IMG/VR virus record: IMGVR_UViG_3300020045_002604
Location: 1 to 61,521 of that record
Origin: a virus
Taxonomy: Duplodnaviria; Caudoviricetes
Reading direction: 5' to 3' (one strand)
DNA: 61,521 nucleotides
Within the stretch, counting starts at the first letter, position 1; every line of letters starts with the position of its first letter. Made by a program: the position numbers and the translations under genes. Below are positions 7,649 to 30,087 of this stretch, in pieces. The notes below the pieces were generated by a model. That model was not told the origin of the DNA. It did no database searches and saw only the letters and a program-made list of their open reading frames with translations.

Positions 7649-8407
7649 ATGGCTAAGATTACTAGTAACGAATACGTGAAGATCGCGTGGGTGCTCGATG
7701 CGAGCATGTCCACTTCGGTTGCCCCCGCGCCCACAGCGGCCATCCTTAACGCGGCCCTCGACCTGTCGCCAGCTATCGCATGGCAGGACTACGAGCTTGG
7801 TGCCACTGACTCGGACGATGTTGACGACCGTGGTATCACTGATCCCGGCAACGCAGTCACTCGCGGTTTTGCCAACTTCGGCGGCACGCTGAGCTTCTTC
7901 CGCGACGCCAACCTGGCGGACAGCACGTCTGACTACGTGAAGGCGTGGAACGCATTTAAGACACCGCGTACCTATGGCTACCTGGTCGTGCGTATCGCTG
8001 ACAAGAAGTGGTCCGACGTATGGGCGGCGGGTGACCGCGTGTCGGTTTACCGCTTCGTGGCTGACACGATCACGGATGACGCCGAGGGCGACGACGCGGT
8101 TAAGTTCACCGTATCGTTCTTGCCTCAGGGACTCCTGTACCCGTACGCCCGTGTGGCGGCTGCTGGTGTTATCTCGGGCATCGCACCTACCAAGTCTCAG
8201 ACTGTTGCGGCTGGTCCGTACGCGCTGTCTCCTATCCTGTCGGCTCGGAGCATCCGCTCCAACGCTACGTACACTTCGTCTGATACGACGAAGGCGCGTG
8301 TGACGGCTAACGGTGTGGTCATCCCCGTCGCCGCTGGTACGGTTACCATCACGGTAAACCATCCTGCCGCGACGGCTTCGGTGCCTCACGCGCTCACGCT
8401 GACATAA
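7649..8407 (+). CDS. Major tail protein with C-terminal Ig-like domain
   Basis: DLSPAI...TDSDDVDD...GN...FFRD plus Big_2-like TYTSSDTTKARVTANGVVIPVAAGTVTIT. Confidence 0.8.
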   Translation: MAKITSNEYVKIAWVLDASMSTSVAPAPTAAILNAALDLSPAIAWQDYELGATDSDDVDDRGITDPGNAVTRGFANFGGTLSFFRDANLADSTSDYVKAWNAFKTPRTYGYLVVRIADKKWSDVWAAGDRVSVYRFVADTITDDAEGDDAVKFTVSFLPQGLLYPYARVAAAGVISGIAPTKSQTVAAGPYALSPILSARSIRSNATYTSSDTTKARVTANGVVIPVAAGTVTITVNHPAATASVPHALTLT

Positions 8408-8443
8408 GCCTAAGCTACGCTACCTTAGGGCCTACCCCCTACC

Positions 8444-8472
8444 GGACTACTCCCCGGTAGGGGGTAGTTTTA
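8444..8472 (+). terminator. Intrinsic terminator after tail tube genes
   Basis: ACTACTCCC...GGGGGTAGT hairpin plus TTT. Confidence 0.6.
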
Positions 8473-8494
8473 TGTCTTAAAACGGGTGCGTTTT

Positions 8495-8505
8495 TGTGAT
8501 AGACT
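8495..8505 (+). promoter_or_regulatory. Extended -10 promoter, leaderless tail chaperone mRNA
   Basis: TGTGA-TAGACT followed by ATG 6 nt later, no RBS. Confidence 0.6.
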
Positions 8506-8511
8506 CGGGGC

Positions 8512-9045
8512 ATGACTACGGATGCTATTACCACAGCCCAGGCCCCTGACACGTTCGACGTGCTCTCATTCATCGAGGGCACGGCGTATCCGCGCGCAGA
8601 GGTTTCGGTGTACACAGACGCCAAGAGCGCCACCGACCTTATCACACTAGGCAACCGCCGCAAGGACCGGGAGATTGCCGAGGGGCCGATCACCGACCTC
8701 GACGATGAGATTGCTGAGCTTGCTGAAAAGGTCGAGGCCTCCAAGCTGACCTTCAAGCTACAGGGCCTACCGCCCGGCATGGTGCGCGACATTTACAACG
8801 TCGAAGAGGGCGCGGACGACACTACCCAGCTATCCGCTGAGAACCGCCTGATCGCTAACACTATCACCGGGGCCGTCAACAGCAAGGGCCAGGTTGACTC
8901 ACGCGTGTGGGACGAGGAGGCTGTGGGTAAGCTACGCCGCTTCCTCAAGGAAGCCGAATTCGGCAAGCTGATCACGGGTGTGATCGAGGTTAACTTTAAC
9001 GCCGCTGTGTTTGACCAGGCGTCCGATGCCGGGTTTCTTGGCTGA
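8512..9045 (+). CDS. Tail assembly chaperone (gpG-like)
   Basis: Between tail tube and TMP. Confidence 0.8.
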   Translation: MTTDAITTAQAPDTFDVLSFIEGTAYPRAEVSVYTDAKSATDLITLGNRRKDREIAEGPITDLDDEIAELAEKVEASKLTFKLQGLPPGMVRDIYNVEEGADDTTQLSAENRLIANTITGAVNSKGQVDSRVWDEEAVGKLRRFLKEAEFGKLITGVIEVNFNAAVFDQASDAGFLG

Positions 9046-12400: not shown

Positions 12401-13922
12401 TACGGCTCAACTGTTGGCCGCCGTTGCCAACGTACCCGGTGTGGATACTAACGCGCTAAACGGGTACCTCGCCGGTACGCTACAGATGAGCGACAGTGGG
12501 TCTTACCTTGCTAGTGTGATGGATCAGCTAGCAGGCTCGGCTGGGGCGGCATCTACCGGTGTAGGCGGCGTAGGTGACTCTGCTAAGGATGCCTCCGAAG
12601 CACTAGAAGAGGCTAGTGTCTCTGCGGCGCAGTTCGCTAGTACGCTTGGCCAGATTGCCGACCGAGCGAATGACATTCGCTACGGTGTGCAGTCGGCTAA
12701 GGATGCTGTATACACGATGCTTAATACAATGAAGCAGGAAGCTGCTGATGCGTATGATAACATCGAAAAGCTTAACCGAGAAATCGGTGAGCTACAGGGT
12801 GAGAACTCTAACCTAGACTACGCGCTACAGGTGGCCATTGATTACGGCGATGACATGCGCGCCGCTGAAATCCGTGCACAGCAGGCTAAGAATGCCACAG
12901 AGATTGCCGACAAGTCTGGACAAGCAACAGAAGAACAGGACAAGCTCAGCAAGTCTACAGAAGGCACCACACAGGCCGCTGTTGACAACAGGGCCGCCTT
13001 GCTCGAACTATCTGCCGGGTACCAGGATCAGATCGAAGCCTACGCAGCTACCGGGGCTAGCCAGGCCGAAGTCGAAGCCTACGCTAAAAAGTTGTACAAG
13101 CAGTACACTAGAGAAGCCGAGGCGCTAGGTTACAGTACTGATTCCGTTAAGAAGTACGGCCTAGGTATTCTAGACATGGCTAAGATTGCTCGCGGTGTTC
13201 CGAAGACCGCTGTGACAAACATCGCCATTAAGGGACTTGATCCTGCCAAGGCGGCGCTCAAGGAATTCGAGGCGCAGGCCCAGAAGTCCGCCAGAGCCGC
13301 GTCGGATTCCATCCGCTCTGGCGGTGGCGGTGGCTGGTCTGTGCCGCCTATCGACCTAGGCTTGAAACCACCCACGCCAGAAAAGGCCCGTGAGTGGGGC
13401 GATACGACCAAGCTTCGTATCGAACGCGGTATGCCACCTGTCGGTGTGCCCCTAAGTTCTGGCCAGGCCAGAGCGCAGGGTTGGGGCGCGGCCTTCGCAT
13501 CCGGGCTAAAGGAATACCTCGACAAGAAGCGTATCCGCACGGCGCCGGGAACAAAGGTTGAATTCAACACAGACGGTACTCTAAAAGAGGGTAGCGTCGG
13601 GCGGTTTAAGTTCTACAAAACTGGTGGTTTCACAGGCCCCGGTAGCAAGCACAACCTTGCTGGCATGGTTCACGGTAAGGAATACGTGATCAACGAAGAG
13701 AACACAAGTCGTCTAGGCATCCCATTCCTGGACGCCCTTAACTCTGGCAAGACGCCGGTAGCACCCGTGGCCAGCCGCGGGTTGCAGGTTGTCGAGTTGT
13801 CGTCGCGGGACCGCGCGCTTTTGGCGGCGACTGGAAATGTAACACTTACAATTGACGGTAAGGTTGTTGGTCAGGCTACAAACGCCGCCAACTTCGGAGC
13901 CGGTAAGAGAGGTAGCAACTAA
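9450..13922 (+). CDS. Tape measure protein
   Basis: 1490 aa, Ala-rich helical, hydrophobic segments, C-terminal GGFTG...GMVHGKEYV. Confidence 0.95.
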   Translation: MANDAELKVGITAEDNATADMRKVATEVANLTDQMSLLAKQAQRAAKSGNALEKSLVGAGKGTKQAATGLKAQLEQMRAVSREEFTLAKRGTSGNDMATRYHFVAQRAKEARDAVAALNLVQKPSGKLYNTEDKRWANKSEVAAYADALKRVVGIEEQLTKLRARSGGSMTAATPTGTTAYASKVAQANNVVAESAEKTSKSMQDLNQHLFTSRFAYYDIAAATGVAGAALIAMNAAAVHASATYESAMASIQRTTGTSNAALETLRSDFIGLAQTIPGGFDNLAKIGELAGQLNIPEDRIASFSETVAKFVSSTDVSVQSATEAFGRLDALLPGVAGNYEALGSSILNVGVNSVATESAIISTATQIAAAGQQAGMTADEIIGLSAAYASLGVAPEAARGTTVRVFGEIGKAVAEGGEKLDKFAKVAQVSSSAFASAFQNSGTEALMLLLNGLAQNSENAQLALADLGITGVRDIKALLGLSQNMEIVNQSFGYAADGFENADALAKAFGITSTTLNSKLEIMAQSFQAFLAEMGEGNLVPLKAFVDAINGLLVVLTEAAGNPVAQWVAAFTALITLVAGGVLIFTAVAARMAAFRASVLLTKIQLDAMSTSTTVANQRLIALRTTALTAATNLATLRGALTALARSTVVIGAVMAIAGIGMSTWERNFKSATDIAKDAGADFGLLRKALEEDTAAAEDGAHVYKTLEGTLTTVQSTTAGWVTQVERATGASVAATSATEDQISKTDELTLSLGKNTKAALAAQLANSQSFQSFVKNLGEYTKSGRYGSGLQLKGIVTKLTEGDIEGARKLYEGWKVEQNALLAFSTDPAGRINFQNTVNDLDASFKEMEGSIAGATAFTEALGVVSSATGINMEALGGSLDESASDADSAADKFSTLQTAIATAFAPMSVLVNWTAAAQQLFSGLTETGVTGFYAMGEAGATNLSNLTNAIATTIAAGASMGVDTTQSVAALFLSLQKMGIDTAQLLAAVANVPGVDTNALNGYLAGTLQMSDSGSYLASVMDQLAGSAGAASTGVGGVGDSAKDASEALEEASVSAAQFASTLGQIADRANDIRYGVQSAKDAVYTMLNTMKQEAADAYDNIEKLNREIGELQGENSNLDYALQVAIDYGDDMRAAEIRAQQAKNATEIADKSGQATEEQDKLSKSTEGTTQAAVDNRAALLELSAGYQDQIEAYAATGASQAEVEAYAKKLYKQYTREAEALGYSTDSVKKYGLGILDMAKIARGVPKTAVTNIAIKGLDPAKAALKEFEAQAQKSARAASDSIRSGGGGGWSVPPIDLGLKPPTPEKAREWGDTTKLRIERGMPPVGVPLSSGQARAQGWGAAFASGLKEYLDKKRIRTAPGTKVEFNTDGTLKEGSVGRFKFYKTGGFTGPGSKHNLAGMVHGKEYVINEENTSRLGIPFLDALNSGKTPVAPVASRGLQVVELSSRDRALLAATGNVTLTIDGKVVGQATNAANFGAGKRGSN

Positions 13923-20188: not shown

Positions 20189-20227
20189 GAAAGCCCCGGT
20201 TAACTACCATAGTTAACCGGGGCTTTC
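20189..20227. terminator. Bidirectional terminator between converging arms
   Basis: Perfect 18-bp stem GAAAGCCCCGGTTAACTA/TAGTTAACCGGGGCTTTC. Confidence 0.85.
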
Positions 20228-20231
20228 TAGT

Positions 20232-20305
20232 TGGCACAGTCTGTAGGAGTCGAACCCACGCTTCTCGGGTTGGAGCCGAGCGTGCTACCGTAACACTTAG
20301 ACCAT
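20232..20305 (-). tRNA. tRNA-Trp(CCA)
   Basis: CTCGG-CT CCA AC-CCGAG; T-loop TTCGACT; CCA end. Confidence 0.9.
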
Positions 20306-20309
20306 ATAG

Positions 20310-20420
20310 CTGAGGACAGTTTTAAGAGTTAACTCGCGTTGCTCTGAGCGTAGGGTGTACTCATCCTGTAGGCTTGTTAGTTGACCAGTAGCCTCACGCC
20401 GCTAGGGCGAAACTGTTTGA
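20310..20420 (-). ncRNA. Putative small structured RNA
   Basis: Closing stem ACAGTTT/AAACTGT with internal hairpins; upstream TGTGG-TATGAT promoter-like site (~20433-20443). Confidence 0.35.
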
Positions 20421-20445
20421 TGTTGTGATAACATCATACCACATT

Positions 20446-20643
20446 TTACAGCGGCGTGTCAACCCCCAGCTTGCCAGCGATCTGTTCCAGTAGCGCTACA
20501 GTGTGCAGTCCTAGCACCACCTGGGTGCTGAGCAGTACATTCTGTGCGGCCTCGCTATGCCCCTCAAGCTCTAGCTCTCGGCTGACGCGTAGACCTTCCT
20601 TAACAAGTTCGCCTAGGCTCTTGGTGTTTTCTGTGTCGGGCAT
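20446..20643 (-). CDS. Hypothetical protein
   Basis: Coupled to upstream gene (TAATG). Confidence 0.65.
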   Translation of the reverse strand: MPDTENTKSLGELVKEGLRVSRELELEGHSEAAQNVLLSTQVVLGLHTVALLEQIAGKLGVDTPL

Positions 20644-21548
20644 TAGCTTGCTTTCCTAGTGTCGAGCGCAGACTGTAGGGGCTTGTTGCCTCGTGACCAG
20701 CCTCCGCAGTTGTCGCACGAAAATAGTTCGTATTCCTGTACGAATGTGTATGTATTGGTGCCGCTCTTTGTGAGAGATTCGTGTGCGCAGTAAGGGCAGT
20801 CGCCACCTTCCGTGGAGAACATACCCATGTGGGGGACGTTCGTGAGCCACGGCAACAGTCGCACGTACAGCCGCTCTGTCAGCCGCACGTCGCCCTCGTT
20901 GTACTCGCGCATCTTGGCCCACGCCTCAGGGTCACCGCCCATGCAGTCGATCCATAGCTGGAACCCCGCGTGCTCAACCTTGGCGCCCACTCCGGTAGCC
21001 TGGGCGATGTAGTCCAGCTTCCTGCTGGGTAGATCGAACCTGGCTCGGTTGGTCTTGAACAGGTCGATACTACGGAACGGCTTTGGCGGGGCCAGCCCGG
21101 CCTGTAGGAACTCGTTGTTGAGTCGCTTAACATCGTAGCGATCACCGTTGTAGGTGATCACAACGTCGGCCCGGCTGAGCAGGTCGTGGGCCGCCCTGAC
21201 CGTCGCCGCGTGTCCGTTGTCGTAATCGCTGTAGTACAGCACTTCGTCATCGCCTAGCCACTTGGCGGCGAAGCACATCATGCCGCCTGGGTCGATCAGC
21301 ATACTGTCTGGAATCCAGTCGGCTTTCTTCGACCACACGTACGCCTGCATGGGCTTGGACTCAATGTCGATTGTCAGAACCCGCGCGCGTGGTAGCACAA
21401 TATCGGCGTGGGCGGTAGGGGCGGCGTCGCCGTAATAAAGCTTACGATACTTGTTCACTGAGGTCTTACCGGTCAGGAGGATACGAGCGGCTTCGCGGCT
21501 ACTCACGTGCGCCGTAGCGTCGATTTGTTCTCGTGTTAGAAATGCCAT
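20643..21548 (-). CDS. DnaQ/RNase H-like (DEDDy) exonuclease with N-terminal HTH and C-terminal Zn ribbon
   Basis: IDIE, YNGDRYD, SRKLDYIA, YNEGDV; CPYC...CDNCG. Confidence 0.85.
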   Translation of the reverse strand: MAFLTREQIDATAHVSSREAARILLTGKTSVNKYRKLYYGDAAPTAHADIVLPRARVLTIDIESKPMQAYVWSKKADWIPDSMLIDPGGMMCFAAKWLGDDEVLYYSDYDNGHAATVRAAHDLLSRADVVITYNGDRYDVKRLNNEFLQAGLAPPKPFRSIDLFKTNRARFDLPSRKLDYIAQATGVGAKVEHAGFQLWIDCMGGDPEAWAKMREYNEGDVRLTERLYVRLLPWLTNVPHMGMFSTEGGDCPYCAHESLTKSGTNTYTFVQEYELFSCDNCGGWSRGNKPLQSALDTRKAS

Positions 21549-21554
21549 TCTACC

Positions 21555-21583
21555 ATCCTAGCATACGAAAAAGGCCCCGTCAA
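21555..21583 (-). promoter_or_regulatory. SigA-type promoter, leaderless; overlaps NrdH terminator hairpin
   Basis: TTGACG-17-TAGGAT, ATG 6 nt downstream. Confidence 0.75.
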
Positions 21584-21596
21584 GGGGCCTTAATCA

Positions 21597-21818
21597 TTAA
21601 AGAGCTGTGATCAGATCAGGTCTAAAACCTGACCAATGTGAGCCATCCGGCGCCACAACCACAGGAGCTTGCAAGTACCCAAGCTCTTTCGTGATGAAAT
21701 CGTATGCCTCACGGTTCTCCGAGATATCGGTGACGTTGTACGGCGTGCCTTGCTTATCTAGCACCTTGTATGTCATTTCGCACTGCACACATGAGGGCTT
21801 TGAAAAAACCTGTACCAA
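21597..21818 (-). CDS. nrdH: NrdH-like glutaredoxin
   Basis: KPSCVQC, GYLQAPVV, HWSGFRPD; likely TTG start after RBS GAAAGG. Confidence 0.9.
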   Translation of the reverse strand: MVQVFSKPSCVQCEMTYKVLDKQGTPYNVTDISENREAYDFITKELGYLQAPVVVAPDGSHWSGFRPDLITAL

Positions 21819-21918
21819 GCTTATTAACCTTTCGATGGGATGACGAATCCCCGGCTCAGATTGTGTCATGAACCGGGGATTCGTTGGGGCTATGTACCTA
21901 TATCAGTATAGCATAGAT

Positions 21919-21997
21919 CGGTAGCCACGGGAGGATTTGAACCTACCTGTCTTCGACGTATCAGATCGACGCTTATACCGGAATTAGCATCGTGGCT
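21919..21997 (-). tRNA. tRNA-Ile(GAT)
   Basis: TCGAT-CT GAT AC-GTCGA; acceptor AGCCACG/CGTGGCT. Confidence 0.8.
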
Positions 21998-21998
21998 A

Positions 21999-22067
21999 TG
22001 GTCCCCCTGCCAGGATTCGAACCCGGACCCGTAGGCTTAGAACACCCTAGGTGATCCATCCAGAGGG
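21999..22067 (-). tRNA. tRNA-Arg(TCT), truncated D-arm
   Basis: T-arm CCGGG TTCGAAT CCTGG, loop GT TCT AA, CCA end; D region only ~11 nt. Confidence 0.6.
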
Positions 22068-22074
22068 ACAGTAT

Positions 22075-22455
22075 TTAGTTGGCGTAATCGAACGGAGAGA
22101 CAGTACCGTCTAGGTAGTGAATGTAACCCTCGTGATCCTTGGCCCACTTGTAGTCACCGTAGACGCTCTCGCGCTCAAGCGGCGTGATCACTCCGTCTAC
22201 GATCAGACGACCATAGACGCTGGGCGACTCCGATCCCGAGCCCCACGCCTCCGACCAACGAGAGCCACAGCACTCGCAGTCACGGCTGTAGTTACCGTCC
22301 TCGTCGTAGCTGTCGAAGTACAGACCGATGCGCTCGGCGCGGTCATTGGCCTCTTCGGCGCTGCCTGCTTCGATGATGACGTAGGGACCGATACCGTCAA
22401 CAGCGTCTTCGAGGAAGAAGCCGCCGCTGTTGTTCTGGTGGAACTCATAAAACAT
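22075..22455 (-). CDS. Hypothetical phage protein
   Basis: FYEFHQNNSGG...DCECCGSRW; RBS AGGAG. Confidence 0.75.
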   Translation of the reverse strand: MFYEFHQNNSGGFFLEDAVDGIGPYVIIEAGSAEEANDRAERIGLYFDSYDEDGNYSRDCECCGSRWSEAWGSGSESPSVYGRLIVDGVITPLERESVYGDYKWAKDHEGYIHYLDGTVSPFDYAN

Positions 22456-22486
22456 GATCTACTCCTAGTTATTTTGTACGGTTAAG

Positions 22487-22560
22487 TGGACGTACCTACT
22501 GGATTCGAACCAGCGTGCGCGGGGTTGCAATCCGCTACCTAGCCTCTCGGTCAAGGTACG
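22487..22560 (-). tRNA. tRNA-Cys(GCA)
   Basis: Loop TT GCA AC; U73 and CCA. Confidence 0.9.
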
Positions 22561-22561
22561 G

Positions 22562-22636
22562 TGGTGGGTGCGGCAGGTAACGATCCCGCCTCCCAAGATT
22601 AAAAGTCAAGTGCTAATCCTTCTCAGCTACACACCC
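22562..22636 (-). tRNA. tRNA-Lys(TTT)
   Basis: Loop CT TTT AA; T-loop ATCGTTA; CCA. Confidence 0.85.
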
Positions 22637-22645
22637 AAAAATAAA

Positions 22646-22719
22646 TGGCTCACAGACCTGGATTCGAACCAAGGCGAACTGATTCAGAGTCAGTCATGCT
22701 ACCGTTACATCATCCGTGA
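22646..22719 (-). tRNA. tRNA-Gln(CTG)
   Basis: ACTGA-CT CTG AA-TCAGT; CCA. Confidence 0.92.
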
Positions 22720-22720
22720 G

Positions 22721-22792
22721 CGCCCCATCCGGGATTCGAACCCAGAATTTCACCTTCGTAGGGTGTTAGTTTATCCGTTAGCTTAACGGGGC
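22721..22792 (-). tRNA. tRNA-Arg(ACG)
   Basis: CACC-CT ACG AA-GGTG. Confidence 0.9.
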
Positions 22793-23074
22793 CTAATCCG
22801 CACAGTGTTCACAGCCTGCGCAACGCTGTTTATGTGTTCTGTCTCTGTGACAATTAGCGCAAACTAAGTCACACTTCATGCTTTCTTTTAGCTGTCTTTC
22901 GTAGGAAATAGACGAGCCTTCCCCTAGCCCAAACGCTTTCTGTGTCGGGTCGCGGTGATCGAAGTCCATTTGCCAGGGTTTGCCCGCCAGTACACAATCT
23001 ACGCAAGCGCTACCATGCGCCTCGATTAATTTTACCTTTGTGCGTTGTCTCCACGCAGTTACCGGGTGCGTCAT
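22793..23074 (-). CDS. HNH endonuclease
   Basis: CVDC...MDFDH...CDLVCANCHRDRT. Confidence 0.85.
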   Translation of the reverse strand: MTHPVTAWRQRTKVKLIEAHGSACVDCVLAGKPWQMDFDHRDPTQKAFGLGEGSSISYERQLKESMKCDLVCANCHRDRTHKQRCAGCEHCAD

Positions 23075-23075
23075 G

Positions 23076-23146
23076 CTCTCCCCCTTGGAATCGAACCAAG
23101 CCCTGATGGTTAACGGCCACCTGCTCCGCCTTGGAGCTGAAGGAGA
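23076..23146 (-). tRNA. tRNA-Asn(GTT)
   Basis: GGTGG-CC GTT AA-CCATC. Confidence 0.85.
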
Positions 23147-23224
23147 ATAACCTCACACACTACCGCCGTGCTACTGAGGAATAAGTGAGGGTTCCTACTC
23201 TCTTCGTGTCACCCACAACCACTG

Positions 23225-23291
23225 TCCTCCCACTAGGAATCGAACCTAGCCTGCAACCGTGTAAAGGTCGCGCCCGCCCAACGACAGGAGG
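23225..23291 (-). tRNA. tRNA-Val(TAC), truncated D-arm
   Basis: GCGACC-TT TAC AC-GGTTGC; T-arm CTAGG TTCGATT CCTAG; D region ~11 nt. Confidence 0.7.
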
Positions 23292-23366
23292 TTACATAGT
23301 GGCCGATACTACCGGTTACCATTTCGGGATACGCTGTACCTGTTATCTAATGGAAGGCCACCACAG

Positions 23367-23440
23367 TGCCGACGACAGGAATCGAACCCGCATACTCCAT
23401 ATTACAAGTATGGTGCTAAACCAGTATTAGCTACATCGGC
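23367..23440 (-). tRNA. tRNA-Thr(TGT)
   Basis: CCATA-CT TGT AA-TATGG. Confidence 0.92.
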
Positions 23441-23453
23441 GTGTATTTAATTG

Positions 23454-23723
23454 TTACTTTCTACGCTTAGGATCATACAGCACTTCATCGAAGATTGCAA
23501 GGTGCTTCTTGTTGAAGCTGTACATTTGCATTCCCTGTCGCGCCGTCCACCCGTACCCTGGCAGGTTGTCCGTCAGCGTTGTGCGGGGTATGCCCGTTGT
23601 GTAGGAGACTTCGCGGTAGCTCGCGCCGTCCTCAAGCAAGGACTTGGCGAACTCCCAACCCTTATCTGTGTAGTTGTGTGTCTTCGGACGACCCGTAGGG
23701 CGACCTGTCTTTACGTATCCCAT
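23454..23723 (-). CDS. HTH DNA-binding protein
   Basis: GRPTGRPK arm plus LLEDGASYREVSYTTGIPRTTL helix-turn-helix. Confidence 0.75.
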   Translation of the reverse strand: MGYVKTGRPTGRPKTHNYTDKGWEFAKSLLEDGASYREVSYTTGIPRTTLTDNLPGYGWTARQGMQMYSFNKKHLAIFDEVLYDPKRRK

Positions 23724-23724
23724 G

Positions 23725-23798
23725 TGCGGCACGGGAGATTCGAACTCCCACTAAATCGTTGGCAACGACTTGTGCTAACCGTTAAACACTAGTACCAC
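23725..23798 (-). tRNA. tRNA-Gly(GCC)
   Basis: AGTCG-TT GCC AA-CGATT. Confidence 0.9.
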
Positions 23799-23799
23799 G

Positions 23800-23874
23800 T
23801 GCGGTAACAGAGACTCGAACTCTGCCTTTCAGTTTGGAAGACTGACGTGCTAATACCACTAACACTACTACCAC
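23800..23874 (-). tRNA. tRNA-Gly(TCC)
   Basis: TCAGT-CT TCC AA-ACTGA. Confidence 0.9.
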
Positions 23875-23875
23875 G

Positions 23876-23947
23876 TGCCCCCGGTAGGTAACGATCCCAC
23901 GTCTACAGGTTAAGAGCCAGTTGCTAATCCATCTCAGCTACGGAGGC
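23876..23947 (-). tRNA. tRNA-Lys(CTT)
   Basis: Loop CT CTT AA; T-loop ATCGTTA. Confidence 0.85.
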
Positions 23948-24027
23948 ATGTGTGGGCCGACCAACTCCCACCGAGTATTTCTACCCTGCGTTTTCCTCCT
24001 AATAACCGAGGTTTGAGGTCGAGTGCG

Positions 24028-24112
24028 CGGAAAGTGGGAGAGTCGAACTCCATACCTTGCGGTACGATCTGTTTAGCAAACAGGCCAGGGCACCAACCCT
24101 GTTCTACCTTCC
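24028..24112 (-). tRNA. tRNA-Ser(GCT)
   Basis: CTGT-TT GCT AA-ACAG; long variable arm TACC GCAA GGTA; G73. Confidence 0.88.
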
Positions 24113-24207
24113 AAGTTTTGAGTACCCGCGCGTGGACAATAAAGTGCTCGCTTCTTCGCCCGTAGTCTAACGACTGTGCGCGGGTACCCAAGTTTTTAGT
24201 TATTAAG

Positions 24208-24290
24208 CGGCGAGTGCAGGATTCGAACCCGCACGACCCAGGAGGTCATCAAGCTTTTCAAGAGCCATAAGTACGCCAATACGACTCGCC
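24208..24290 (-). tRNA. tRNA-Ser(TGA)
   Basis: Loop CT TGA AA; long variable arm; short D-arm. Confidence 0.75.
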
Positions 24291-24355
24291 AAATGGTTAG
24301 AGGCCCGATACTTGTAAGTACCGGGCCTCTGCCAACCAACACAGAAAGGAGGAAT

Positions 24356-24418
24356 TTAACCCAGCACAAAGGCCCCGACGTTATTGCCGGTGCGCTTCGA
24401 CTGGATCGTGATGAACAT
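24356..24418 (-). CDS. Putative leaderless 20-aa peptide MFITIQSKRTGNNVGAFVLG
   Basis: ATG 6 nt after consensus -10. Confidence 0.45.
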   Translation of the reverse strand: MFITIQSKRTGNNVGAFVLG

Positions 24419-24424
24419 ACTGTT

Positions 24425-24453
24425 ATTCTAGCACAACTTTGACGGTTTGTCAA
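24425..24453 (-). promoter_or_regulatory. SigA-type promoter
   Basis: TTGACA-17-TAGAAT with TG extension. Confidence 0.85.
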
Positions 24454-24463
24454 CAGTTAACTG

Positions 24464-24544
24464 TAGCCCCGGAGAGATTTGAACTCTCAATCCTTTCGGC
24501 ACCAGTTTCTAAGACTGGCGTGTATACCGTTCCACCACGGAGCC
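24464..24544 (-). tRNA. tRNA-Leu(TAG)
   Basis: CCAGT-CT TAG AA-ACTGG; variable arm CC GAAA GG. Confidence 0.92.
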
Positions 24545-24545
24545 G

Positions 24546-24619
24546 TACGCGGGGAGGGATTCGAACCCTCACACCCAAGCTTTTGAGGCCCGGAGGTATA
24601 CCGTTCCCATCACCCGCGC
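24546..24619 (-). tRNA. tRNA-Leu(CAA), short variable loop
   Basis: CGGGC-CT CAA AA-GCTTG; Leu-type D loop GGTATAC; A73. Confidence 0.8.
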
Positions 24620-24630
24620 GTATTAAATTG

Positions 24631-24792
24631 TTAGGAGGGTAGCCCCTCCGTCATCACACGGAACTTCGTGCGACGCTTGCGACCCAGCCACTTGGCACCC
24701 ATCTGGGCTGTCTCCCGCGCGCTGTACAAGAACGGTGATCCGTCCCGCATGAGTGCAGTCTGGCGAGTCTTGATGTCGATGAGATAGTACAT
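24631..24792 (-). CDS. Small basic hypothetical protein
   Basis: MYYLIDIK... after purine-rich RBS. Confidence 0.55.
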   Translation of the reverse strand: MYYLIDIKTRQTALMRDGSPFLYSARETAQMGAKWLGRKRRTKFRVMTEGLPS

Positions 24793-24889
24793 GGTACTCT
24801 CTTTCTTGTTGGCGAGTGGTTTCGGCTGGTAACGATCCAGCAACTCCGGGACTTCAATCCAGCGTGTATCCATTAACACTTCAAAACCG

Positions 24890-24964
24890 TGGTGGGAGCA
24901 CTTAGGGTCGAACTAAGCTACCGTTGTTTTACAGACAAGTTGCGCACCCCGCGCACTTACTCCC
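24890..24964 (-). tRNA. tRNA-Tyr(GTA), short variable loop
   Basis: TTGT-CT GTA AA-ACAA; acceptor GGGAGTA/TGCTCCC, A73, CCA. Confidence 0.8.
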
Positions 24965-24965
24965 G

Positions 24966-25038
24966 TACTCCCAAGGGGATTCGAACCCCTGCCACCCGGT
25001 GTGAAAAACCGGCATCCTAACCACTAGACCATGAGAGC
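24966..25038 (-). tRNA. tRNA-Glu(TTC)
   Basis: CCGGT-TT TTC AC-ACCGG. Confidence 0.92.
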
Positions 25039-25170
25039 GTACAACCGGTAGCATACTCTTCTGGCTTACGATCCAGTACCCTTTGCTATGAAATGGAAGA
25101 ACGCCCTCGGTTGTCCGACGTTCCGACTCTGAGTGGTATACCTTGCGGCAGTGACGATACTCAGCCCGCG

Positions 25171-25241
25171 TACTCCGTAGGGGTTTCGATCCCCTGACAA
25201 TAGGTTGAGAACCTAACGTGTTGCCATTACACCAACGGAGC
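25171..25241 (-). tRNA. tRNA-Glu(CTC)
   Basis: TAGG-TT CTC AA-CCTA; T-loop ATCGAAA. Confidence 0.85.
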
Positions 25242-25297
25242 ATAAGAATGAAAACCCTGCAGCTTTAGGCCCGTTTCAGGGGCGATCTTCATTCTAG

Positions 25298-25369
25298 CGA
25301 ACCTAACGGGTTACGATCCCGCTTCCTTCCGGCTGACAACCGGGCGCTTATCCATTCAGCTTTAGGTCC
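25298..25369 (-). tRNA. tRNA-Asp(GTC)
   Basis: CCGG-TT GTC AG-CCGG; T-loop ATCGTAA. Confidence 0.85.
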
Positions 25370-25373
25370 AAGA

Positions 25374-25460
25374 TGCAGTTGTCGGAGAATTTCACGTCCG
25401 AATCGAAGCGGTTCTACCGGCAGGGCCGGGTCCGTGACGCTCTTATTGAGCTACAACTGC
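25374..25460 (-). ncRNA. Rearranged tRNA-like RNA
   Basis: Acceptor GCAGTTG/CAACTGC-A and D-arm GCTC/GAGC intact; anticodon and T regions non-canonical. Confidence 0.6.
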
Positions 25461-25463
25461 AAG

Positions 25464-25541
25464 TGGGGTGAACGACGGGAATCGAACCCGCGACGGACTG
25501 ACTCACAATCAGGCTGAACTGCCAGCAGTTCCCCGTTCAAC
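25464..25541 (-). tRNA. tRNA-His(GTG)
   Basis: CTGA-TT GTG AG-TCAG; G-1, C73, CCA; 6-bp D stem. Confidence 0.85.
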
Positions 25542-25542
25542 G

Positions 25543-25617
25543 TCTAGGTGGCAGGATTCGAACCTGCGGCCTTAAGCTTCCAAAGCAAACACTCTGACCA
25601 AACTGAGCTACACCTAG
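25543..25617 (-). tRNA. tRNA-Pro(TGG)
   Basis: Loop TT TGG AA; C1-G72, A73. Confidence 0.88.
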
Positions 25618-25765
25618 TTATGTGGATACCCTAACAGTTAGCACCGTATGTACGGCCTGTGTCTTGGGATTGTGACTCACGCCCCCGCAAGGTTTCTGGT
25701 CTGGTATCCTCTGCCTCCCACCTCGCAAACCTTTTTCGGTGGGCTGTGCTATTTAGTTTTTAAAG

Positions 25766-25841
25766 TTGCCGGGGAGGGATTCGAACCCTCGATTTCGAGA
25801 TTATGAGACTCGCGTCGTAGACCTAGCTGGACCACCCGACA
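25766..25841 (-). tRNA. tRNA-Met(CAT)
   Basis: CGAG(T)-CT CAT AA-(T)CTCG; initiator vs elongator vs Ile2 not resolved. Confidence 0.85.
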
Positions 25842-25844
25842 ATA

Positions 25845-26583
25845 CCGTGTAGGGGCTGAGAGTACACCCTACAATGGCAAGCTTTCGTTGGATTATTTGT
25901 TCCCAACTTCTCCACAGTATCCCTACTGTACTTACCGCGCCTGGTGGATTTTACGGGGCACCACCCCAGAATCAGAAAGCTACTCCACAGGTTTGACTTC
26001 GTAAAGGGACCGCTAAACCCCTAAACTGCACTACTCCCTTATGAACTACCTTGGCCTTGCGAGCTTCCAGTAGCCTCAGTTCCCGTGTTAGGGCTGAGGA
26101 TTAAGACGCTTTCACTCTCTGACGGAACAGGCTTTCGCTTGTATTTTGAAATACCATTTTCAATATGGAGCACCCTATAACCCAGGTGCGGGGCATGACA
26201 GAGGACGTGCTGTTCCATGAAGTTCCGTAGGCTTTTGACCCACAGTATGCTTCACGCCCTCATGCTTTCGTTGGCGACTACTCACACTCTCCGCTACTTT
26301 CCGAACTGCCGTCCGTGCCGTAGTTTCATGGTGACCGCCCTAGTTTGCCGACTCGGACTTATCACCCTGCGTTGAATACTCAGGCTTACTAGATGCCAGT
26401 CTATGCCTAGACTCGCTCCACCGGTTGGCCCTGCGATTTACACTTCGCTCACCTGAGTAGTGACCGTTACGATCACTTAATCATTGCATTGCGTAGTTTA
26501 CCCTTGCGGGCGGAAGCTTTGTCGAACTTCCTTTCACCAACTCACGTTGGCTTATGGGCTACGCCCCAACACATTGCTGTGTC
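25845..26583 (-). ncRNA. Large structured ncRNA, GOLLD-like
   Basis: ~740 nt with no ORF >=60 aa, between tRNA-Ala and tRNA-Met; many GNRA-capped hairpins and AGUA/GAA motifs; 3' hairpin TGTAGGG-TGTACTCTCAG-CCCCTACA; size and context fit GOLLD. Confidence 0.7.
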
Positions 26584-26584
26584 G

Positions 26585-26657
26585 TGGACCCACGGGGACT
26601 TGAACCCCGCGCCTTCTGCTTGCAAAACAGATGCTCTACCGGATGAGCTATAGGCCC
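26585..26657 (-). tRNA. tRNA-Ala(TGC)
   Basis: TCTGT-TT TGC AA-GCAGA; G3:U70. Confidence 0.93.
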
Positions 26658-26672
26658 GTATTTACTTTGTAC

Positions 26673-26701
26673 ATATTAGCAGAGGCCGGATACTTTGTCA
26701 A
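26673..26701 (-). promoter_or_regulatory. SigA-type promoter of tRNA/ncRNA array
   Basis: TTGACA-17-TAATAT just upstream of tRNA-Ala. Confidence 0.85.
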
Positions 26702-26735
26702 GTACCCGGCCTCTACTTAGATGTAGTAGATGGTT

Positions 26736-26795
26736 TTAGGTACACGAATCAGCGGCATCCTCGAATGCCGGGTAGAGTTCGTGTGTCTTAGTCAT
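26736..26795 (-). CDS. Putative leaderless 19-aa peptide MTKTHELYPAFEDAADSCT
   Basis: ATG 7 nt after consensus -10. Confidence 0.4.
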   Translation of the reverse strand: MTKTHELYPAFEDAADSCT

Positions 26796-26802
26796 GTGTA
26801 CT

Positions 26803-26831
26803 ATCATAGCACAACTTTCTGTGGTTGTCAA
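26803..26831 (-). promoter_or_regulatory. SigA-type promoter
   Basis: TTGACA-17-TATGAT with TG extension. Confidence 0.85.
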
Positions 26832-27122: not shown

Positions 27123-27294
27123 GCACCCAGCTTGTGGCTGTCTGCCACCCGCCAAGTTGACGCTCTTCGACGGTATCCAGCTCAGCTTCGGTGATCGTTG
27201 CCGAGTCTAGCACACTGTCTGGCAGATTGTCAAGGGCCTCTAGGATACCTCTCAGGCTAGTAGCCTGGATCGTGTGTTGTCCCTTAAGAATCAT
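27085..27294 (-). CDS. Hypothetical protein
   Basis: ATGA overlap with upstream gene. Confidence 0.6.
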   Translation of the reverse strand: MILKGQHTIQATSLRGILEALDNLPDSVLDSATITEAELDTVEERQLGGWQTATSWVLTLDFEWPVELA

Positions 27295-27754: not shown

Positions 27755-28504
27755 TTAACTGAGGTCGGACCAGGAGGTCCCGATGCTGTAGTCTGATAGG
27801 AACGGCACGGCGTCGCCGAGAACCATCCTGCCTGTCTTGCGTAGTTGAAGTCCTACATAGCGACCGATTGTGTCGGCGTTATCGGACGGACCCTCGATCA
27901 TCATGGCGTCATGGACCAGGTTAAACAGCTTGTAGCCTGCATCCTTGAGGGACGGGTTGATACGGATCGCGGTTGCCAGCAGGATATCACTTGACGTACT
28001 CTGCGGCAAGAACGACAGAGCTTCGCGCTCGATGTTCCTGTAATTTTTAGTTGTTACAACTTCCGACTGGAAGCGGCGCCCGAACGGATTGATCAGCAGG
28101 TCACGGCGGCTGGGTATTCTCGCCGCCGCCTTAACGTCTTCGCGCCACTTAGCAAAGCCTACCGCAACAGCCATGTAGTTGTCAATGATCCTCTGGGCTT
28201 CCCAGGTCTTCATGCCTAGGGACTGCGCGATAGCTGGTGCCTGGCGACCGAACGCTAGACCGTACTGAACCGCCTTAACCTTCGTCCGGGCCTCTTTGTG
28301 GAGGACCGGACATTTCTCTTTGTAGACTTCGATTGACCCGAACTCGTGGACGATCTGCGGGAACGCTACAGGCATAAGGTGACTGTCAAAAAAGTCTCCC
28401 GCCCCTTCCTGTAGCGCCCCGATCATCCACTCGTCGTTAGACAGCCGCGCCATGACCCGGAGTTCGGCCTGCGACAAGTCGATGTTAATCATCACCGTCT
28501 TCAT
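27755..28504 (-). CDS. polA: Family A DNA polymerase, C-terminal part (motifs A, B, C)
   Basis: DLSQAELRVMA, RTKVKAVQYGLAFG, NLVHDAM; own RBS GGAGGA before ATG 28504. Confidence 0.92.
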   Translation of the reverse strand: MKTVMINIDLSQAELRVMARLSNDEWMIGALQEGAGDFFDSHLMPVAFPQIVHEFGSIEVYKEKCPVLHKEARTKVKAVQYGLAFGRQAPAIAQSLGMKTWEAQRIIDNYMAVAVGFAKWREDVKAAARIPSRRDLLINPFGRRFQSEVVTTKNYRNIEREALSFLPQSTSSDILLATAIRINPSLKDAGYKLFNLVHDAMMIEGPSDNADTIGRYVGLQLRKTGRMVLGDAVPFLSDYSIGTSWSDLS

Positions 28505-28673
28505 CTGGTTCCTCCCCCTCATCGTCTGGCGGATTGGGCGTGAACCCCATCTGCGTTCGCGTTTCTAGGGTGTGCGTTTCGGGTTCCTCTACTTCGAACC
28601 CGCCGTGTATGATCGTGCACAATACCTCACCGGCATCGTCACCTACATACTTGATAACCGTAAAGCCCTTCAC
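28485..28673 (-). CDS. Small acidic protein between the polymerase halves
   Basis: GTG start after RBS GAGGA; 62 aa with acidic tail. Confidence 0.6.
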   Translation of the reverse strand: MKGFTVIKYVGDDAGEVLCTIIHGGFEVEEPETHTLETRTQMGFTPNPPDDEGEEPDEDGDD

Positions 28674-28674
28674 T

Positions 28675-30087
28675 CTATTCCTCGATCCGCACAATTTCTC
28701 GAACGCGCTTGTCTCGCGGCATGTTCTGGGCGTTGGGCTTCGTGCTGGACAGGCGCCCTGTGGACGTACCGTGCACCAGGAACGTAGGGCGCACCCTTGC
28801 CTGCGTATCGCCGTCGAGCTTGCGGGCCTGGGCGCCCCAGCCCTCGGCGTAGGTGCTGTTCTGCTTGGCCAGCCCCCGGTACTCTAGGAGTACGTGACAC
28901 CAGTCCGCGACAGCGGCCTCGGGGTTGTTTTCGATAAGCTCTGCCAGCGTGGCCTCGTTAGTCGAGAACACCACCCTGCCGAACCGGTCAGAAAGTGCTC
29001 GCTTTACCTGGACGGGACTGTTAGGGTTGAACTTAACATCACCCGCACCCTCCCTAAGCTGGTCGAGCATCAAGTCCATCGTCTGTATATTGGCACTACG
29101 CAGACTCTCTGCCGCCTGGAAGCTAAACGGGATACCGTTCATTTCCACTTCGAGCAGAAGCTCCGCGAGCGCCAACTCAAACTCAAACGCTTTCTGGTTC
29201 TCTTCGTCCGCTTCGATCTGCGGTGCGAACAGTTCCCACAACTTGTAGGTCCAGTACACGTCCCACCCGTTGTAAGTAATCAGAGCACCCCAAGGGATAA
29301 GCTCGTAATGACCTCCACCCTTGGTGTGCTTGTTGATACCCTCTTCCCAGTCCGGTGCGCCGTAGTATCTACGTGCGAGAATCTTGAGTCCATGCTCACC
29401 CGCCGCGTGGTTGAGTACGTGATGGGCCAGCATCGTGTCGAACCATACGTGCAACTCAACACCCAGTACTCTGTTCAGCACGCGGGTATCGAATTTGCCG
29501 TTGTGGTAGATGCCCTTGGTGAACTTAGGTAGCGCCTCTTTGAGCATGTCCAACATGCTCTCGCTAAGGGGCTGGCTACTACCGTCTGTTGCAGGGTTGT
29601 GATATACCACGGGGTAGCACCCATCCTGATACAGCGCGACGGAAATGACCTCTACCTCTTCCGCCGTGTGTGACCTTCCCAGGTTACCGTTTGTTTCAAT
29701 ATCGATAGCCGTGGGCTTGTAGAAGTCGAAGTCGAATAGCGCGGGGTGCGCGGCTCCACTAGCATAACCAGCGGGCTTGATGTGCTCCGGTGGTGTATGC
29801 ACACCATTGAAGTACAACTGCAACGACGACGTGAGCACCGTAGCCGCATTAGCTTTGGCCATGATCTGGGCGATGGAGTACGTGTAGATATACTCGTTGT
29901 CGAAGACCGCCCGTTCTGGGGCGCGCGAGCCGAACACAAGGACACGACGAGGCGACGCGTCGCTGGGCTTAAGCTCTACGAACTTAACGTCGTCGTACCC
30001 GTTAGCTTCCTTGATGTTTTTTAGGACTTCAATCGCTCGGGGAGTCGGCTCCTGCTCTGAGTAAATCCAGCAGATTCGGTGTTCCAT
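28675..30087 (-). CDS. polA: Family A DNA polymerase, N-terminal part (3'-5' exonuclease + thumb)
   Basis: IDIET, HNGKFD, DTMLAH, YNGWDV; FNPNSPVQ; GTSTGRLSSTKPNAQNMPR. Confidence 0.92.
   Translation of the reverse strand: MEHRICWIYSEQEPTPRAIEVLKNIKEANGYDDVKFVELKPSDASPRRVLVFGSRAPERAVFDNEYIYTYSIAQIMAKANAATVLTSSLQLYFNGVHTPPEHIKPAGYASGAAHPALFDFDFYKPTAIDIETNGNLGRSHTAEEVEVISVALYQDGCYPVVYHNPATDGSSQPLSESMLDMLKEALPKFTKGIYHNGKFDTRVLNRVLGVELHVWFDTMLAHHVLNHAAGEHGLKILARRYYGAPDWEEGINKHTKGGGHYELIPWGALITYNGWDVYWTYKLWELFAPQIEADEENQKAFEFELALAELLLEVEMNGIPFSFQAAESLRSANIQTMDLMLDQLREGAGDVKFNPNSPVQVKRALSDRFGRVVFSTNEATLAELIENNPEAAVADWCHVLLEYRGLAKQNSTYAEGWGAQARKLDGDTQARVRPTFLVHGTSTGRLSSTKPNAQNMPRDKRVREIVRIEE

Follow-up and report, generated by a model that had tools for sequence, protein, structure and literature searches.

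Are the gaps between the genes of a phage tRNA cluster filler, or do they carry RNAs of their own? The question is raised by IMGVR_UViG_3300020045_002604, a complete 61,521-bp virus record with direct terminal repeats (the whole record is called the window here), which has a tRNA cluster on its minus strand at 20190-26831. The initial annotation read this cluster as one polycistronic array in which tRNAs act as cutting marks that release small structured RNAs, each closed by its own stem, together with a giant RNA. The explanation that we favor, and hold to be probable as a whole, is that the cluster contains three conserved non-tRNA RNAs besides the giant RNA GOLLD: S1, a leader with its own promoter; S6, a three-way junction; and S12, a pseudoknotted module. 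tRNA genes or a transcription start mark the limits of each. tRNA precursors are processed by RNase P and RNase Z. If RNase P cut the following tRNA at its 5' end and RNase Z trimmed the 3' end of the tRNA before, S6 and S12 would be freed as discrete RNAs, and tRNA-processing enzymes would cut S1 off its tRNA-Trp; release of the conserved spacers is reasonable because their ends abut tRNA genes. S12 would most likely bind a conserved host or phage component, given its many invariant unpaired bases and its mixed contexts, and could function either as a stable RNA or in cis, as a leader or anti-termination-type element of its own transcript. The new findings are a dissection of the cluster into conserved and disposable parts, S1 and S6, and an S12 family that has no match in Rfam.

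The G+C content of the window is 51-62%, and the nearest relatives of one large protein that it encodes (at most ~39% identity) are in Microbacterium and Clavibacter phages. From these relatives and from the S12 motif, which is common to the window and Microbacterium phages, we infer an actinophage-like virus, host included. A megablast search of the whole region against GenBank phages returned nothing close, the matches being three tRNA fragments only. Three loci in IMG/VR were useful relatives: L011, an 8.6-kb fragment with a polymerase 76% identical to that of the window; L028, with 23 tRNAs identified by ARAGORN in the same order as in the window; and L040, with a partial array (Ala, Met, the S12 motif, Pro, Asp, Glu, Glu, Tyr). 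A search of sequencing runs for the region returned no RNA run and two DNA runs from a single study, which contain a small share of it; contigs from these runs, belonging to a phage closer still, were aligned to the region, and the alignment tables give the parts that align, without sequence. Relatives reached via the RNase H-like gene of the cluster (nine loci, 41-61% identity) all lacked the array, the DUF7296 gene found no relative as a query, and a single metagenome scan yielded only a 1,078-bp fragment and two distant loci. Fold z-scores compare the minimum-energy fold of each stretch with those of 200 dinucleotide shuffles.

The S12 pseudoknot RNA family

25618-25764, minus strand: spacer S12, after tRNA-Met, an A/U-rich linker and then a pseudoknotted motif (model match 25622-25744)

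The S12 motif consists of a hairpin, P1, a 7-bp pseudoknot between the P1 loop and a strand that follows ACCAG, and an outer stem, P2 (25703-25709 with 25624-25630), that encloses hairpins P3 and P4. It is 86% identical to its L011 counterpart over 138 nt; the adjacent tRNA-Met genes differ strongly by eye. Its helices are maintained by compensation: CCCACC/GGUGGG changes to CCUACC/GGUAGG or GCCGUCC/GGACGGC, and GGAUACC/GGUAUCC changes to GGGAACC/GGUUCCC or GGAUGAC/GUCAUCC. A blastn search in distant mode matched S12 to 39 records of Microbacterium phages (genus Dismasvirus), at an intergenic stretch that carries no annotation; 10 of the records were retrieved, and all 10 were confirmed by covariance model. 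The model, R1, was built from 11 S12 sequences; it made one match in each motif-bearing source and found no copy in phage Bongo (L016), L002-L010, L012, L029, or L030. In an alignment made by MAFFT only (14 sequences, 11 distinct), 96.2% of cells pair, compared to 32-41% when partners are slid by 1-3 columns. Nine of the 19 pairs are changed on both sides, and none of 500 shuffles reached the observed value for any of five measures.

With strict patterns, the only finds were L011 and L021, both in viral contigs; genome contigs gave none. A relaxed pattern, demanding the blocks ACCAG..ACC.UGCG, CAAGAC, and CUGUUAGG, retrieved 17 stretches in viral contigs and 4 in genome-bin contigs, and 18 loci were added in this way. 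The genome-bin contigs (L046, L047, L048, and L049) come from two Saccharibacteria bins, one Propioniciclava bin, and one Mollicutes bin; they may be prophages or mis-binned phage contigs. On one of the genome-bin contigs, 672 kb long, the motif adjoins tRNA-Gln.

R1 matched all 29 loci searched, once each, at 58.8-121.4 bits. Among 26 distinct sequences, P2 was 97.4% paired, P3 96.2%, P4a 92.3%, and P4b 96.9%, which places these helices at 92-97% versus 38-47% in slid controls. Pairs changed on both sides numbered 5 of 6 in P2, 3 of 4 in P3, and 5 of 5 in P4b, and the covariation score was 0.615 versus at most 0.166 when slid. MAFFT produced no usable alignment of P1 and the 5' pseudoknot strand between two S12 subtypes, and these parts were scored by script. 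The P1 hairpin was present in all of the first 14 sequences. The pseudoknot strands were complementary at 7 of 7 positions in 20 of the 26 sequences; the remaining sequences have 6 of 7, and 12 different strand pairs occur. The script chooses the best upstream 7-mer, which biases this score upwards. For the 20 perfect cases, the observed score was attained in 0-7 of 200 trials with the upstream part shuffled. S12 contains G-U pairs (in 17 of 26 sequences at one P4b pair, for example), and therefore the minus strand is the folded strand.

Approximately 45 unpaired bases are invariant across sequences of 40-72% G+C, and the motif is common to phages with polymerases at most 76% identical and to unrelated Microbacterium phages. 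This comparative evidence supports S12 well as a predicted pseudoknotted RNA family of ~110 nt with no match in Rfam 15. A catalogue of 10,006 candidate viral RNAs, 8,495 of them from IMG/VR, is described by Fremin et al. 2023 (PMC10690425). It treats the same kind of object, covarying RNA motifs of uncultured phages, in the same database, and the S12 family may be among its IMG/VR candidates; the main text of that paper, in the parts available to us, names no actinophage motif of the S12 kind.

Conserved and disposable spacers

20306-20432, minus strand: spacer S1, a ~120-nt noncoding leader from promoter P4 to tRNA-Trp, conserved in L028 and related contigs
24113-24206, minus strand: spacer S6, a three-way junction between tRNA-Ser(TGA) and tRNA-Ser(GCT) (z = -6.4)

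In S1, the 5' 70 nt are conserved; they contain two hairpins and a conserved loop of 15 nt, ACYGGUCAACUAAMA. L028 keeps the promoter, the 5' 70 nt (78-86% identical), a tRNA-Trp-like gene (by eye), and the terminator. Hairpin GGCU/AGCC of the window is AUCC/GGAU in L028, and with a further compensated pair, the pairs changed on both sides number four; the closing stem ACAGUUU/AAACUGU corresponds to CGGUUU/AAACUG by eye. In the related contigs, 118 nt of S1 align at 92% identity versus 80% for the next gene, and the small open reading frame (ORF) between them is replaced. A peptide-coding role for S1 was rejected, as the 11-codon ORF of the window has no counterpart in L028 by eye.

S6 begins with an A/U-rich linker; two hairpins then lie within a closing stem of 14 bp (24118-24131 with 24178-24191). 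Its counterpart at L028 9544-9636 (z = -4.5) occupies the same place and has the same architecture, the closing stems being 12-14 bp long. A hand count found that 5 of 13 stem pairs are changed on both sides and still pair; the window and L028 each have a G-U pair in this stem. S1, S6, and S12 appear to be under selection for RNA helices on the minus strand, and S1 and S6 are predicted to be two new lineage-specific conserved RNAs. No Rfam 15 family was found for S1, S6, or S12 in the window at E ≤ 10, nor at the homologous places in L017-L021, L028, and L011 at E ≤ 1. The Rfam search that the initial annotation proposed did match GOLLD and add a tRNA, and the proposed comparison of related phages gave strong covariation for S12 and compensated helices relative to L028 for S1 and S6; the other named spacers had no alignable counterpart.

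Four further stretches had drawn attention, three as closed spacers and one as a rearranged tRNA:

23292-23365, minus strand: spacer with a 9-bp closing stem, not conserved (z = -0.56)
25242-25296, minus strand: spacer with a 10-bp closing stem, not conserved (z = -2.4; absent from L028; no match in L028 or L040)
25039-25169, minus strand: spacer with no significant fold and a T-arm-like remnant at 25063-25083 (repeat D14), not conserved (z = +0.79)
25370-25463, minus strand: the "rearranged tRNA" oddity, not conserved (z = -3.0)

The claim that the six named spacers are closed by their own stems held for five of them in the minimum-energy fold, 25039-25169 not being stably closed. By energy alone, only two of the six are more stable than chance: z-scores are -6.4 for 24113-24206, -2.4 for 25242-25296, -1.55 for 25618-25764, -0.56 for 23292-23365, -0.33 for 20306-20445, and +0.79 for 25039-25169. 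Two other spacers, 23948-24028 (z = -0.8) and 23148-23223 (z = -0.08), are within chance. Conserved structure is found in half of the named spacers, namely S1, S6, and S12 with their compensatory changes; the other three are absent from or unalignable in relatives. The generalization to "most" spacers was wrong, since these three, the rearranged tRNA, 23148-23223, and 23948-24028 are missing, replaced, or unalignable in relatives, and two other gaps are overlooked tRNA genes rather than structured spacers.

In place of spacer 23292-23365, the contigs of both runs have 11 letters, and L028 has an unrelated spacer of 70 nt. No match to 25039-25169, 23148-23223, or 23948-24028 was found in L028 or L040, and an exact 38-nt word of 25039-25169 had no match in viral contigs. 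In distant-mode blastn searches of 50,697 phage records (E ≤ 10), 24113-24206 had no match, and 25370-25463, 25039-25169, 20306-20445, and 24291-24462 had only chance matches of 19-27 nt, mostly within protein genes. The tRNA-derived look of 25370-25463 was confirmed in an acceptor-like 9-bp stem, a D-arm-like hairpin, and a T-loop-like hairpin inside a third helix. It has no anticodon loop, does not form a canonical, complete cloverleaf, has no tRNA match at E ≤ 10, and is absent from L028. There, tRNA-Pro, -His, -Asp, and -Glu abut, leaving no counterpart of 25242-25296 or 25370-25463, and the related contigs skip both. In L028, a 266-nt noncoding spacer (8360-8625) lies between two tRNA-Glu genes; it has no Rfam match and is unrelated to the 131-nt spacer of the window.

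The nonconserved spacers are most plausibly filler specific to the lineage, or else tRNA copies that have decayed, with hairpins that may at most insulate tRNA folding. If all spacers were nonfunctional remains of this kind (decayed tRNA genes or recombination scars), conservation where it occurs would reflect recent common ancestry. The T-arm-like remnant in 25039-25169, the tRNA-derived look of 25370-25463, and the lack of conservation in at least four spacers are what such remains would look like. For S12, this explanation is refuted by heavy compensatory change across distant and unrelated phages. It also fits poorly with the S6 stem, which differs at five pairs yet still pairs, and with S1, which is better conserved than the adjacent protein gene. 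We regard it as improbable for the cluster as a whole.

Genomic contexts and candidate roles of S12

The flanks of S12 were compared for 25 loci. In 10 of these, the motif lies after the stop codon of a Gp3-like "recombination directionality factor" gene, identified by Pfam and PHROG matches for 2 of the 10, and before an intrinsic terminator. Five loci (the window, L011, L028, L040, and L033) have a tRNA or tRNA-like 3' end just upstream; what comes next is tRNA-Pro in three cases and an ORF in the other two. In six (L048, L036, L044, L041, L049, and L035), a -10-like hexamer ends 1-3 nt before the model match, and all but L048 have a ribosome-binding site and ORF within ~30 nt; L044 and L041 count as one lineage, and the operon that S12 heads in this group contains the large terminase. 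The remaining four contexts are mixed. Since no tRNA lies directly upstream in 20 of the 25 loci, tRNAs are not obligatory "cutting marks" for S12, and what survives of that proposal is that the conserved spacers in the window abut tRNA genes, from which their release can be deduced. Its occurrence away from tRNAs marks S12 as an independent module rather than tRNA-dependent cargo. The varied contexts indicate that this module is self-contained and tolerates 5'-terminal, internal, and 3'-terminal positions in transcripts.

A role in regulating one gene family was rejected, the flanking genes being unrelated. A riboswitch would combine an aptamer and an expression platform upstream of a recurrent gene family, and what follows S12 is a tRNA, a terminator without a gene, or unrelated ORFs.

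These contexts bear on the view that the conserved spacers are only cis signals for the processing or expression of the tRNA operon, with S6 an RNase III-type stem, S1 a leader for tRNA-Trp maturation, and S12 a leader or anti-termination element that carries transcription through the hairpin-rich array and its terminators. We consider this view possible, if doubtful. The 12-14-bp stem of S6 is flanked by A/U-rich linkers in both phages. S12 follows a -10-like hexamer by 1-3 nt and precedes a ribosome-binding site and ORF in five lineages, stands a few bases before an intrinsic terminator in 10 of the 25 loci, and heads the large-terminase operon in one group. The put RNA of phage HK022 is presumably a precedent for an anti-termination element of this sort. 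This compact folded RNA targets the very polymerase that transcribes it, from sites immediately after promoters or ahead of terminators. Its placement resembles that of 16 of the 25 S12 loci; put itself is two simple stem-loops, with no similarity to S12 in sequence or fold. The ~45 invariant unpaired bases and pseudoknotted three-way junction of S12 exceed the needs of a processing stem, and no alternative pairing of S12 with downstream ribosome-binding sites or terminators was seen, no systematic search having been made. The order gene, motif, terminator is also the classic layout of a stand-alone small RNA or one derived from a 3' untranslated region.

Alternatively, S12 could be a new self-cleaving ribozyme or a ligand-binding aptamer (an orphan riboswitch), its location in a tRNA cluster being incidental. 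A length of ~110 nt, the pseudoknot, the multihelix junction, and junction bases conserved across 40-72% G+C would suit such a molecule, as would the varied contexts, which are usual for small ribozymes. In L031 and L032, moreover, the P2 3' strand is GGAGAA and a start codon follows 1-3 nt past the model match. Against this, no known ribozyme or riboswitch family in Rfam matches, no downstream gene is common to the loci, and no ORF follows S12 in the window or the Microbacterium phages. On balance, we think this explanation unlikely.

Taken together, the candidate roles rank as follows. An element acting on its own transcript or on the polymerase, of the leader or anti-termination kind, comes first, though we propose it only tentatively; a stable trans-acting RNA or decoy, which we would put at roughly one chance in four, comes second; a ribozyme or aptamer is the least likely of the three, and the rest falls to something else. 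A bolder combination is also conceivable, albeit speculative: S12 would be a new functional RNA class of phages with hosts in at least three groups (Actinobacteria, Saccharibacteria, and a Mollicutes bin), defined by the ACCAG...CUGUUAGG pseudoknot, and tRNA clusters would be launch pads that swap GOLLD, S1, S6, and S12. S12 could then be a factor-independent reprogrammer of RNA polymerase or the ribosome, a self-cleaving ribozyme, or a sponge for a host signal.

RNAC and RNAD of phage T4 (species 1 and 2), a precedent for non-tRNA RNAs in a phage tRNA cluster, reportedly lie among the T4 tRNA genes and mature with the tRNAs. The elements of the window resemble these small stable RNAs in their positions beside tRNA genes alone. 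Both sets, compared here by description only, are phage-encoded non-tRNA RNAs; the window differs from T4 in having three elements plus GOLLD, one with its own promoter (S1) and one from a family also found away from tRNAs (S12). The T4 RNAs are described as expressed and of unknown function (PMC9697503).

Several points weigh against the explanation that we favor. Transcription of the cluster, processing of its RNAs, and their stability are predictions. For S1 and S6, L028 is the single relative that is fully readable, supplemented by partial contig evidence, and two sequences allow no statistics. Energy alone does not support S1 (z = -0.33) or S12 (z = -1.55). The alignment of 26 S12 sequences was fitted to the model structure, and P1 is poorly aligned in it (60.6% paired). 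Block conservation among the 18 pattern-found loci is circular because the pattern demands those blocks, which does not apply to the helices. The genes that flank S12 belong to no common family, the downstream ORFs being in unrelated families, and the mixed contexts favor neither a cis nor a trans role.

GOLLD, transcription units, and tRNA gene content

25853-26583, minus strand: GOLLD RNA (Rfam RF02032 model part, 25853-26262; 5' domain, 26263-26583, up to tRNA-Ala)

The giant RNA of the initial annotation proved to be a full-length GOLLD. The gap 25842-26583 contains an Rfam match to RF02032 at 25853-26262, with 210.5 bits (cut-off, 150) over model positions 1-416 of 416. A further 321 noncoding bases form the variable 5' domain, which is 81% identical in the related-phage contigs and resembles that of cluster M mycobacteriophages; the RNA is phage-borne and lies beside tRNA genes, as is characteristic of GOLLD. 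tRNA-Met begins 11 nt after the match. The window GOLLD is full length and flush between two tRNA genes. This setting agrees with earlier reports, which place GOLLD within or next to the tRNA islands of phages and mycobacteria (PMC6582537; bioRxiv 10.1101/2024.12.08.627333, which cites Morgado 2020), and nothing about GOLLD itself is new here. A difference is that the window RNA has no tRNA embedded in it.

The slot between tRNA-Ala and tRNA-Met (window 25842-26583) holds GOLLD in the window and the related contigs, and shorter RNAs without Rfam match in L011 and L028. In L040, for which no Rfam search was run, it holds a shorter spacer that is homologous to that of L011 by eye. The slot RNA is a conserved RNA of ~190 nt in L011 (8093-8288) and L040 (~13439-13628), with helices compensated by eye, and a 247-nt RNA in L028 (7576-7822). 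All three have the words GGGNUUAGCGGCC and CGAAAGCCUG in common with GOLLD, and the slot RNA may be either a cargo RNA that was swapped in or a relative of GOLLD in reduced form.

Sigma-70-like promoter sites in the region numbered 12, compared to 4.4 +/- 2.0 in shuffles. Minus-strand promoters with 10-11 of 12 matching positions and an extended -10 are found inside the cluster at 26831, 26701, 24453, and 20462 and just upstream at 27233. Equivalent promoters occur at matching places in L011, L028, and L040 by eye. Terminators are predicted at 21591-21571 and at a perfect 18-bp hairpin, 20189-20227, after tRNA-Trp. The strong promoters and two terminators divide the cluster, which therefore is not one polycistron, as had been proposed; it probably comprises at least four transcription units with their own promoters. 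Five to six protein genes are interspersed in the cluster: genes for an NrdH-type glutaredoxin, DUF7296, and an RNase H-like protein, plus three small ORFs.

This division bears on the proposal that closed spacers, rearranged tRNA, and GOLLD form one coordinated, tRNA-punctuated polycistronic set, released and acting together as decoys, cargo of GOLLD cages, or anti-defense RNAs. The spacers do abut tRNA genes, several fold well, and three are conserved. GOLLD forms cages, and a proposal in the literature is that these enclose tRNAs or other molecules (bioRxiv 10.1101/2024.12.08.627333). The promoters and terminators split the set, however; relatives lack or replace the rearranged tRNA and three of the six named spacers; and S12 lacks a tRNA directly upstream in 20 of 25 loci. 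No link between the conserved RNAs and GOLLD was found among the relatives: L011 and L028 keep S12 without an Rfam match to GOLLD, and L040 keeps S12 with the ~190-nt slot spacer, on which no Rfam search was run. We judge a coordinated set to be very improbable.

The principal promoters, leaders, and small genes are as follows:

26803-26831, minus strand: promoter P1 at the cluster head, TTGACA-17-TATGAT, 11/12, extended -10 (promoter scan; paralogue of promoter P3)
26736-26795, minus strand: leaderless 19-codon mini-ORF, MTKTHELYPAFEDAADSCT, starting 7 nt after the -10 of promoter P1 (by-eye translation)
26670-26725, minus strand: strong hairpin with the -35 box of promoter P2 (26701-26673) in its loop (26658-26800, z = -8.3; paralogue at 24299-24335)
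24631-24792, minus strand: small protein gene, 53 amino acids, between tRNA-Phe and tRNA-Leu, with a homologue in L028 (by-eye translation)
24291-24453, minus strand: promoter P3 (24453-24425) and the tRNA-Ser(TGA) leader
20433-20462, minus strand: promoter P4, TTGACA-18-TATGAT, 11/12, inside the end of a 65-codon ORF (promoter scan)

The promoters at 26831 and 24453 are paralogues (repeat D13), and P4 has a counterpart at the same place in L028, TTGACA-17-TATAAT. Downstream of the mini-ORF at 26736-26795, a hairpin overlaps the next promoter, an arrangement like that of a leader peptide and attenuator. By eye, the peptide core of the mini-ORF, L-P-(A)-F-E/D-D/E-A, is kept with synonymous changes in four phages (the window; L011, ~7876-7926; L028, ~7366-7416; L040, ~13221-13274). 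The leader of tRNA-Ser(TGA) combines a leaderless mini-ORF of 20 codons (24356-24418) with a CCUCCUUUC tract and a hairpin of 14 bp (24299-24335); the z-score of 24291-24424 is -5.9, and 24291-24453 is 90-93% identical to L028 and 98% identical to the related contigs. In the comparison of 24291-24424 with L028 9331-9459, the 20-codon ORF is MFITIQSKRTGNNVGAFVLG, and an invariant tract, UUCCUCCUUUCUGUG, has what we take to be a resemblance to the 3' end of 16S rRNA. A neighboring protein gene has only 59% protein identity to L028, and the leader, at 90-93%, is thus far too conserved to be explained by the 20-codon ORF alone.

Farther upstream on the minus strand, a family A DNA polymerase is encoded in two ORFs, 27755-28522 and 28675-30087, ~150 nt apart; one carries the exonuclease and N-terminal polymerase part, and the C-terminal polymerase part follows.

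The initial annotation's count of 25 tRNAs was correct. ARAGORN identified 21, all on the minus strand at 20232-26657, and five tRNA or tRNA-like genes that it overlooked (Lys-UUU, Ser-GCU, Asn-GUU, Tyr-GUA, and an Arg-UCU-like gene) bring the total to 25 tRNAs and one tRNA-like gene, with all 20 amino acids represented. The five, and the three ARAGORN tRNAs that border GOLLD, S12, and S1, are listed below:

26584-26657, minus strand: tRNA-Ala(TGC) (ARAGORN, Rfam)
25765-25841, minus strand: tRNA-Met(CAT) (ARAGORN, Rfam)
24890-24964, minus strand: tRNA-Tyr(GUA) with encoded CCA (missed by ARAGORN and Rfam; cloverleaf by eye)
24029-24112, minus strand: tRNA-Ser(GCT), class II (43.8 bits on the tRNA-Sec model, cut-off 47; GCU anticodon by eye)
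23075-23147, minus strand: tRNA-Asn(GUU) (missed by ARAGORN and Rfam; minimum-energy fold is a cloverleaf)
22565-22636, minus strand: tRNA-Lys (Rfam only, 40 bits, at the gathering score; anticodon UUU by eye)
22002-22067, minus strand: tRNA-like gene with a short D region and loop GUGUUCUAAG, possibly Arg-UCU (tRNA 21.4 bits and mascRNA 28.3 bits, both below cut-off)
20232-20305, minus strand: tRNA-Trp(CCA) (ARAGORN), followed by the perfect 18-bp hairpin 20189-20227 that closes the unit

The genes for Tyr, Asn, Ser(GCT), and Lys were accepted as tRNAs on the criteria of a cloverleaf with a 7-nt anticodon loop and a T-loop and of an orthologue in the same place in relatives. ARAGORN places a tRNA-Asn of L028 at the same position as 23075-23147. 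The tRNA-Tyr gene is 98% identical in the related contigs and matched in synteny by an ARAGORN tRNA-Tyr in L040 and a cloverleaf fold at L028 8699-8772; the stretch 24889-24964 has a z-score of -1.7, within chance. The tRNA-Ser(GCT) homologue at L028 9638-9721 scores 44.9 bits, and a score below the cut-off on the tRNA-Sec model is behavior typical of long-arm tRNA-Ser. The tRNA-like gene has a homologue at L028 ~11712-11787 (by eye) in which loop GUGUUCUAAG is invariant; its anticodon region could be Arg-UCU or an enlarged loop containing CUA.

Four minus-strand tRNAs (22565-22636, 23875-23947, 24816-24888, and 25297-25369) have an unusual T-arm word, GGAUCGUUACC or GGAUCGUAACC (repeat families D5 and D8), where GGUUCGAAUCC is usual. 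A recurrent A/U-rich word (AAUUUAAUAC or UUAAAUAC) precedes tRNAs that lie downstream of an ORF or promoter (window 24620-24630, 23441-23453, and 26658-26669, minus strand; L028 9135-9144, 11214-11221, and 11703-11711), and AAUAACUAAA-like linkers precede S6 and S12. These words and linkers may be processing signals.

Standard tRNA finders thus overlook a fifth of the tRNA genes in this cluster, and a complete 20-amino-acid set emerges once these are added. Phage tRNA clusters are usually read as codon-supply devices, and the gaps of this one are a mix of conserved folded RNAs and disposable stretches. As the S12 family occurs in cultured Microbacterium phages, which grow on a harmless laboratory strain, its function is directly testable, and it offers an experimental route to what the structured RNAs of phages (GOLLD, ROOL, and RNAC and RNAD of T4) do.

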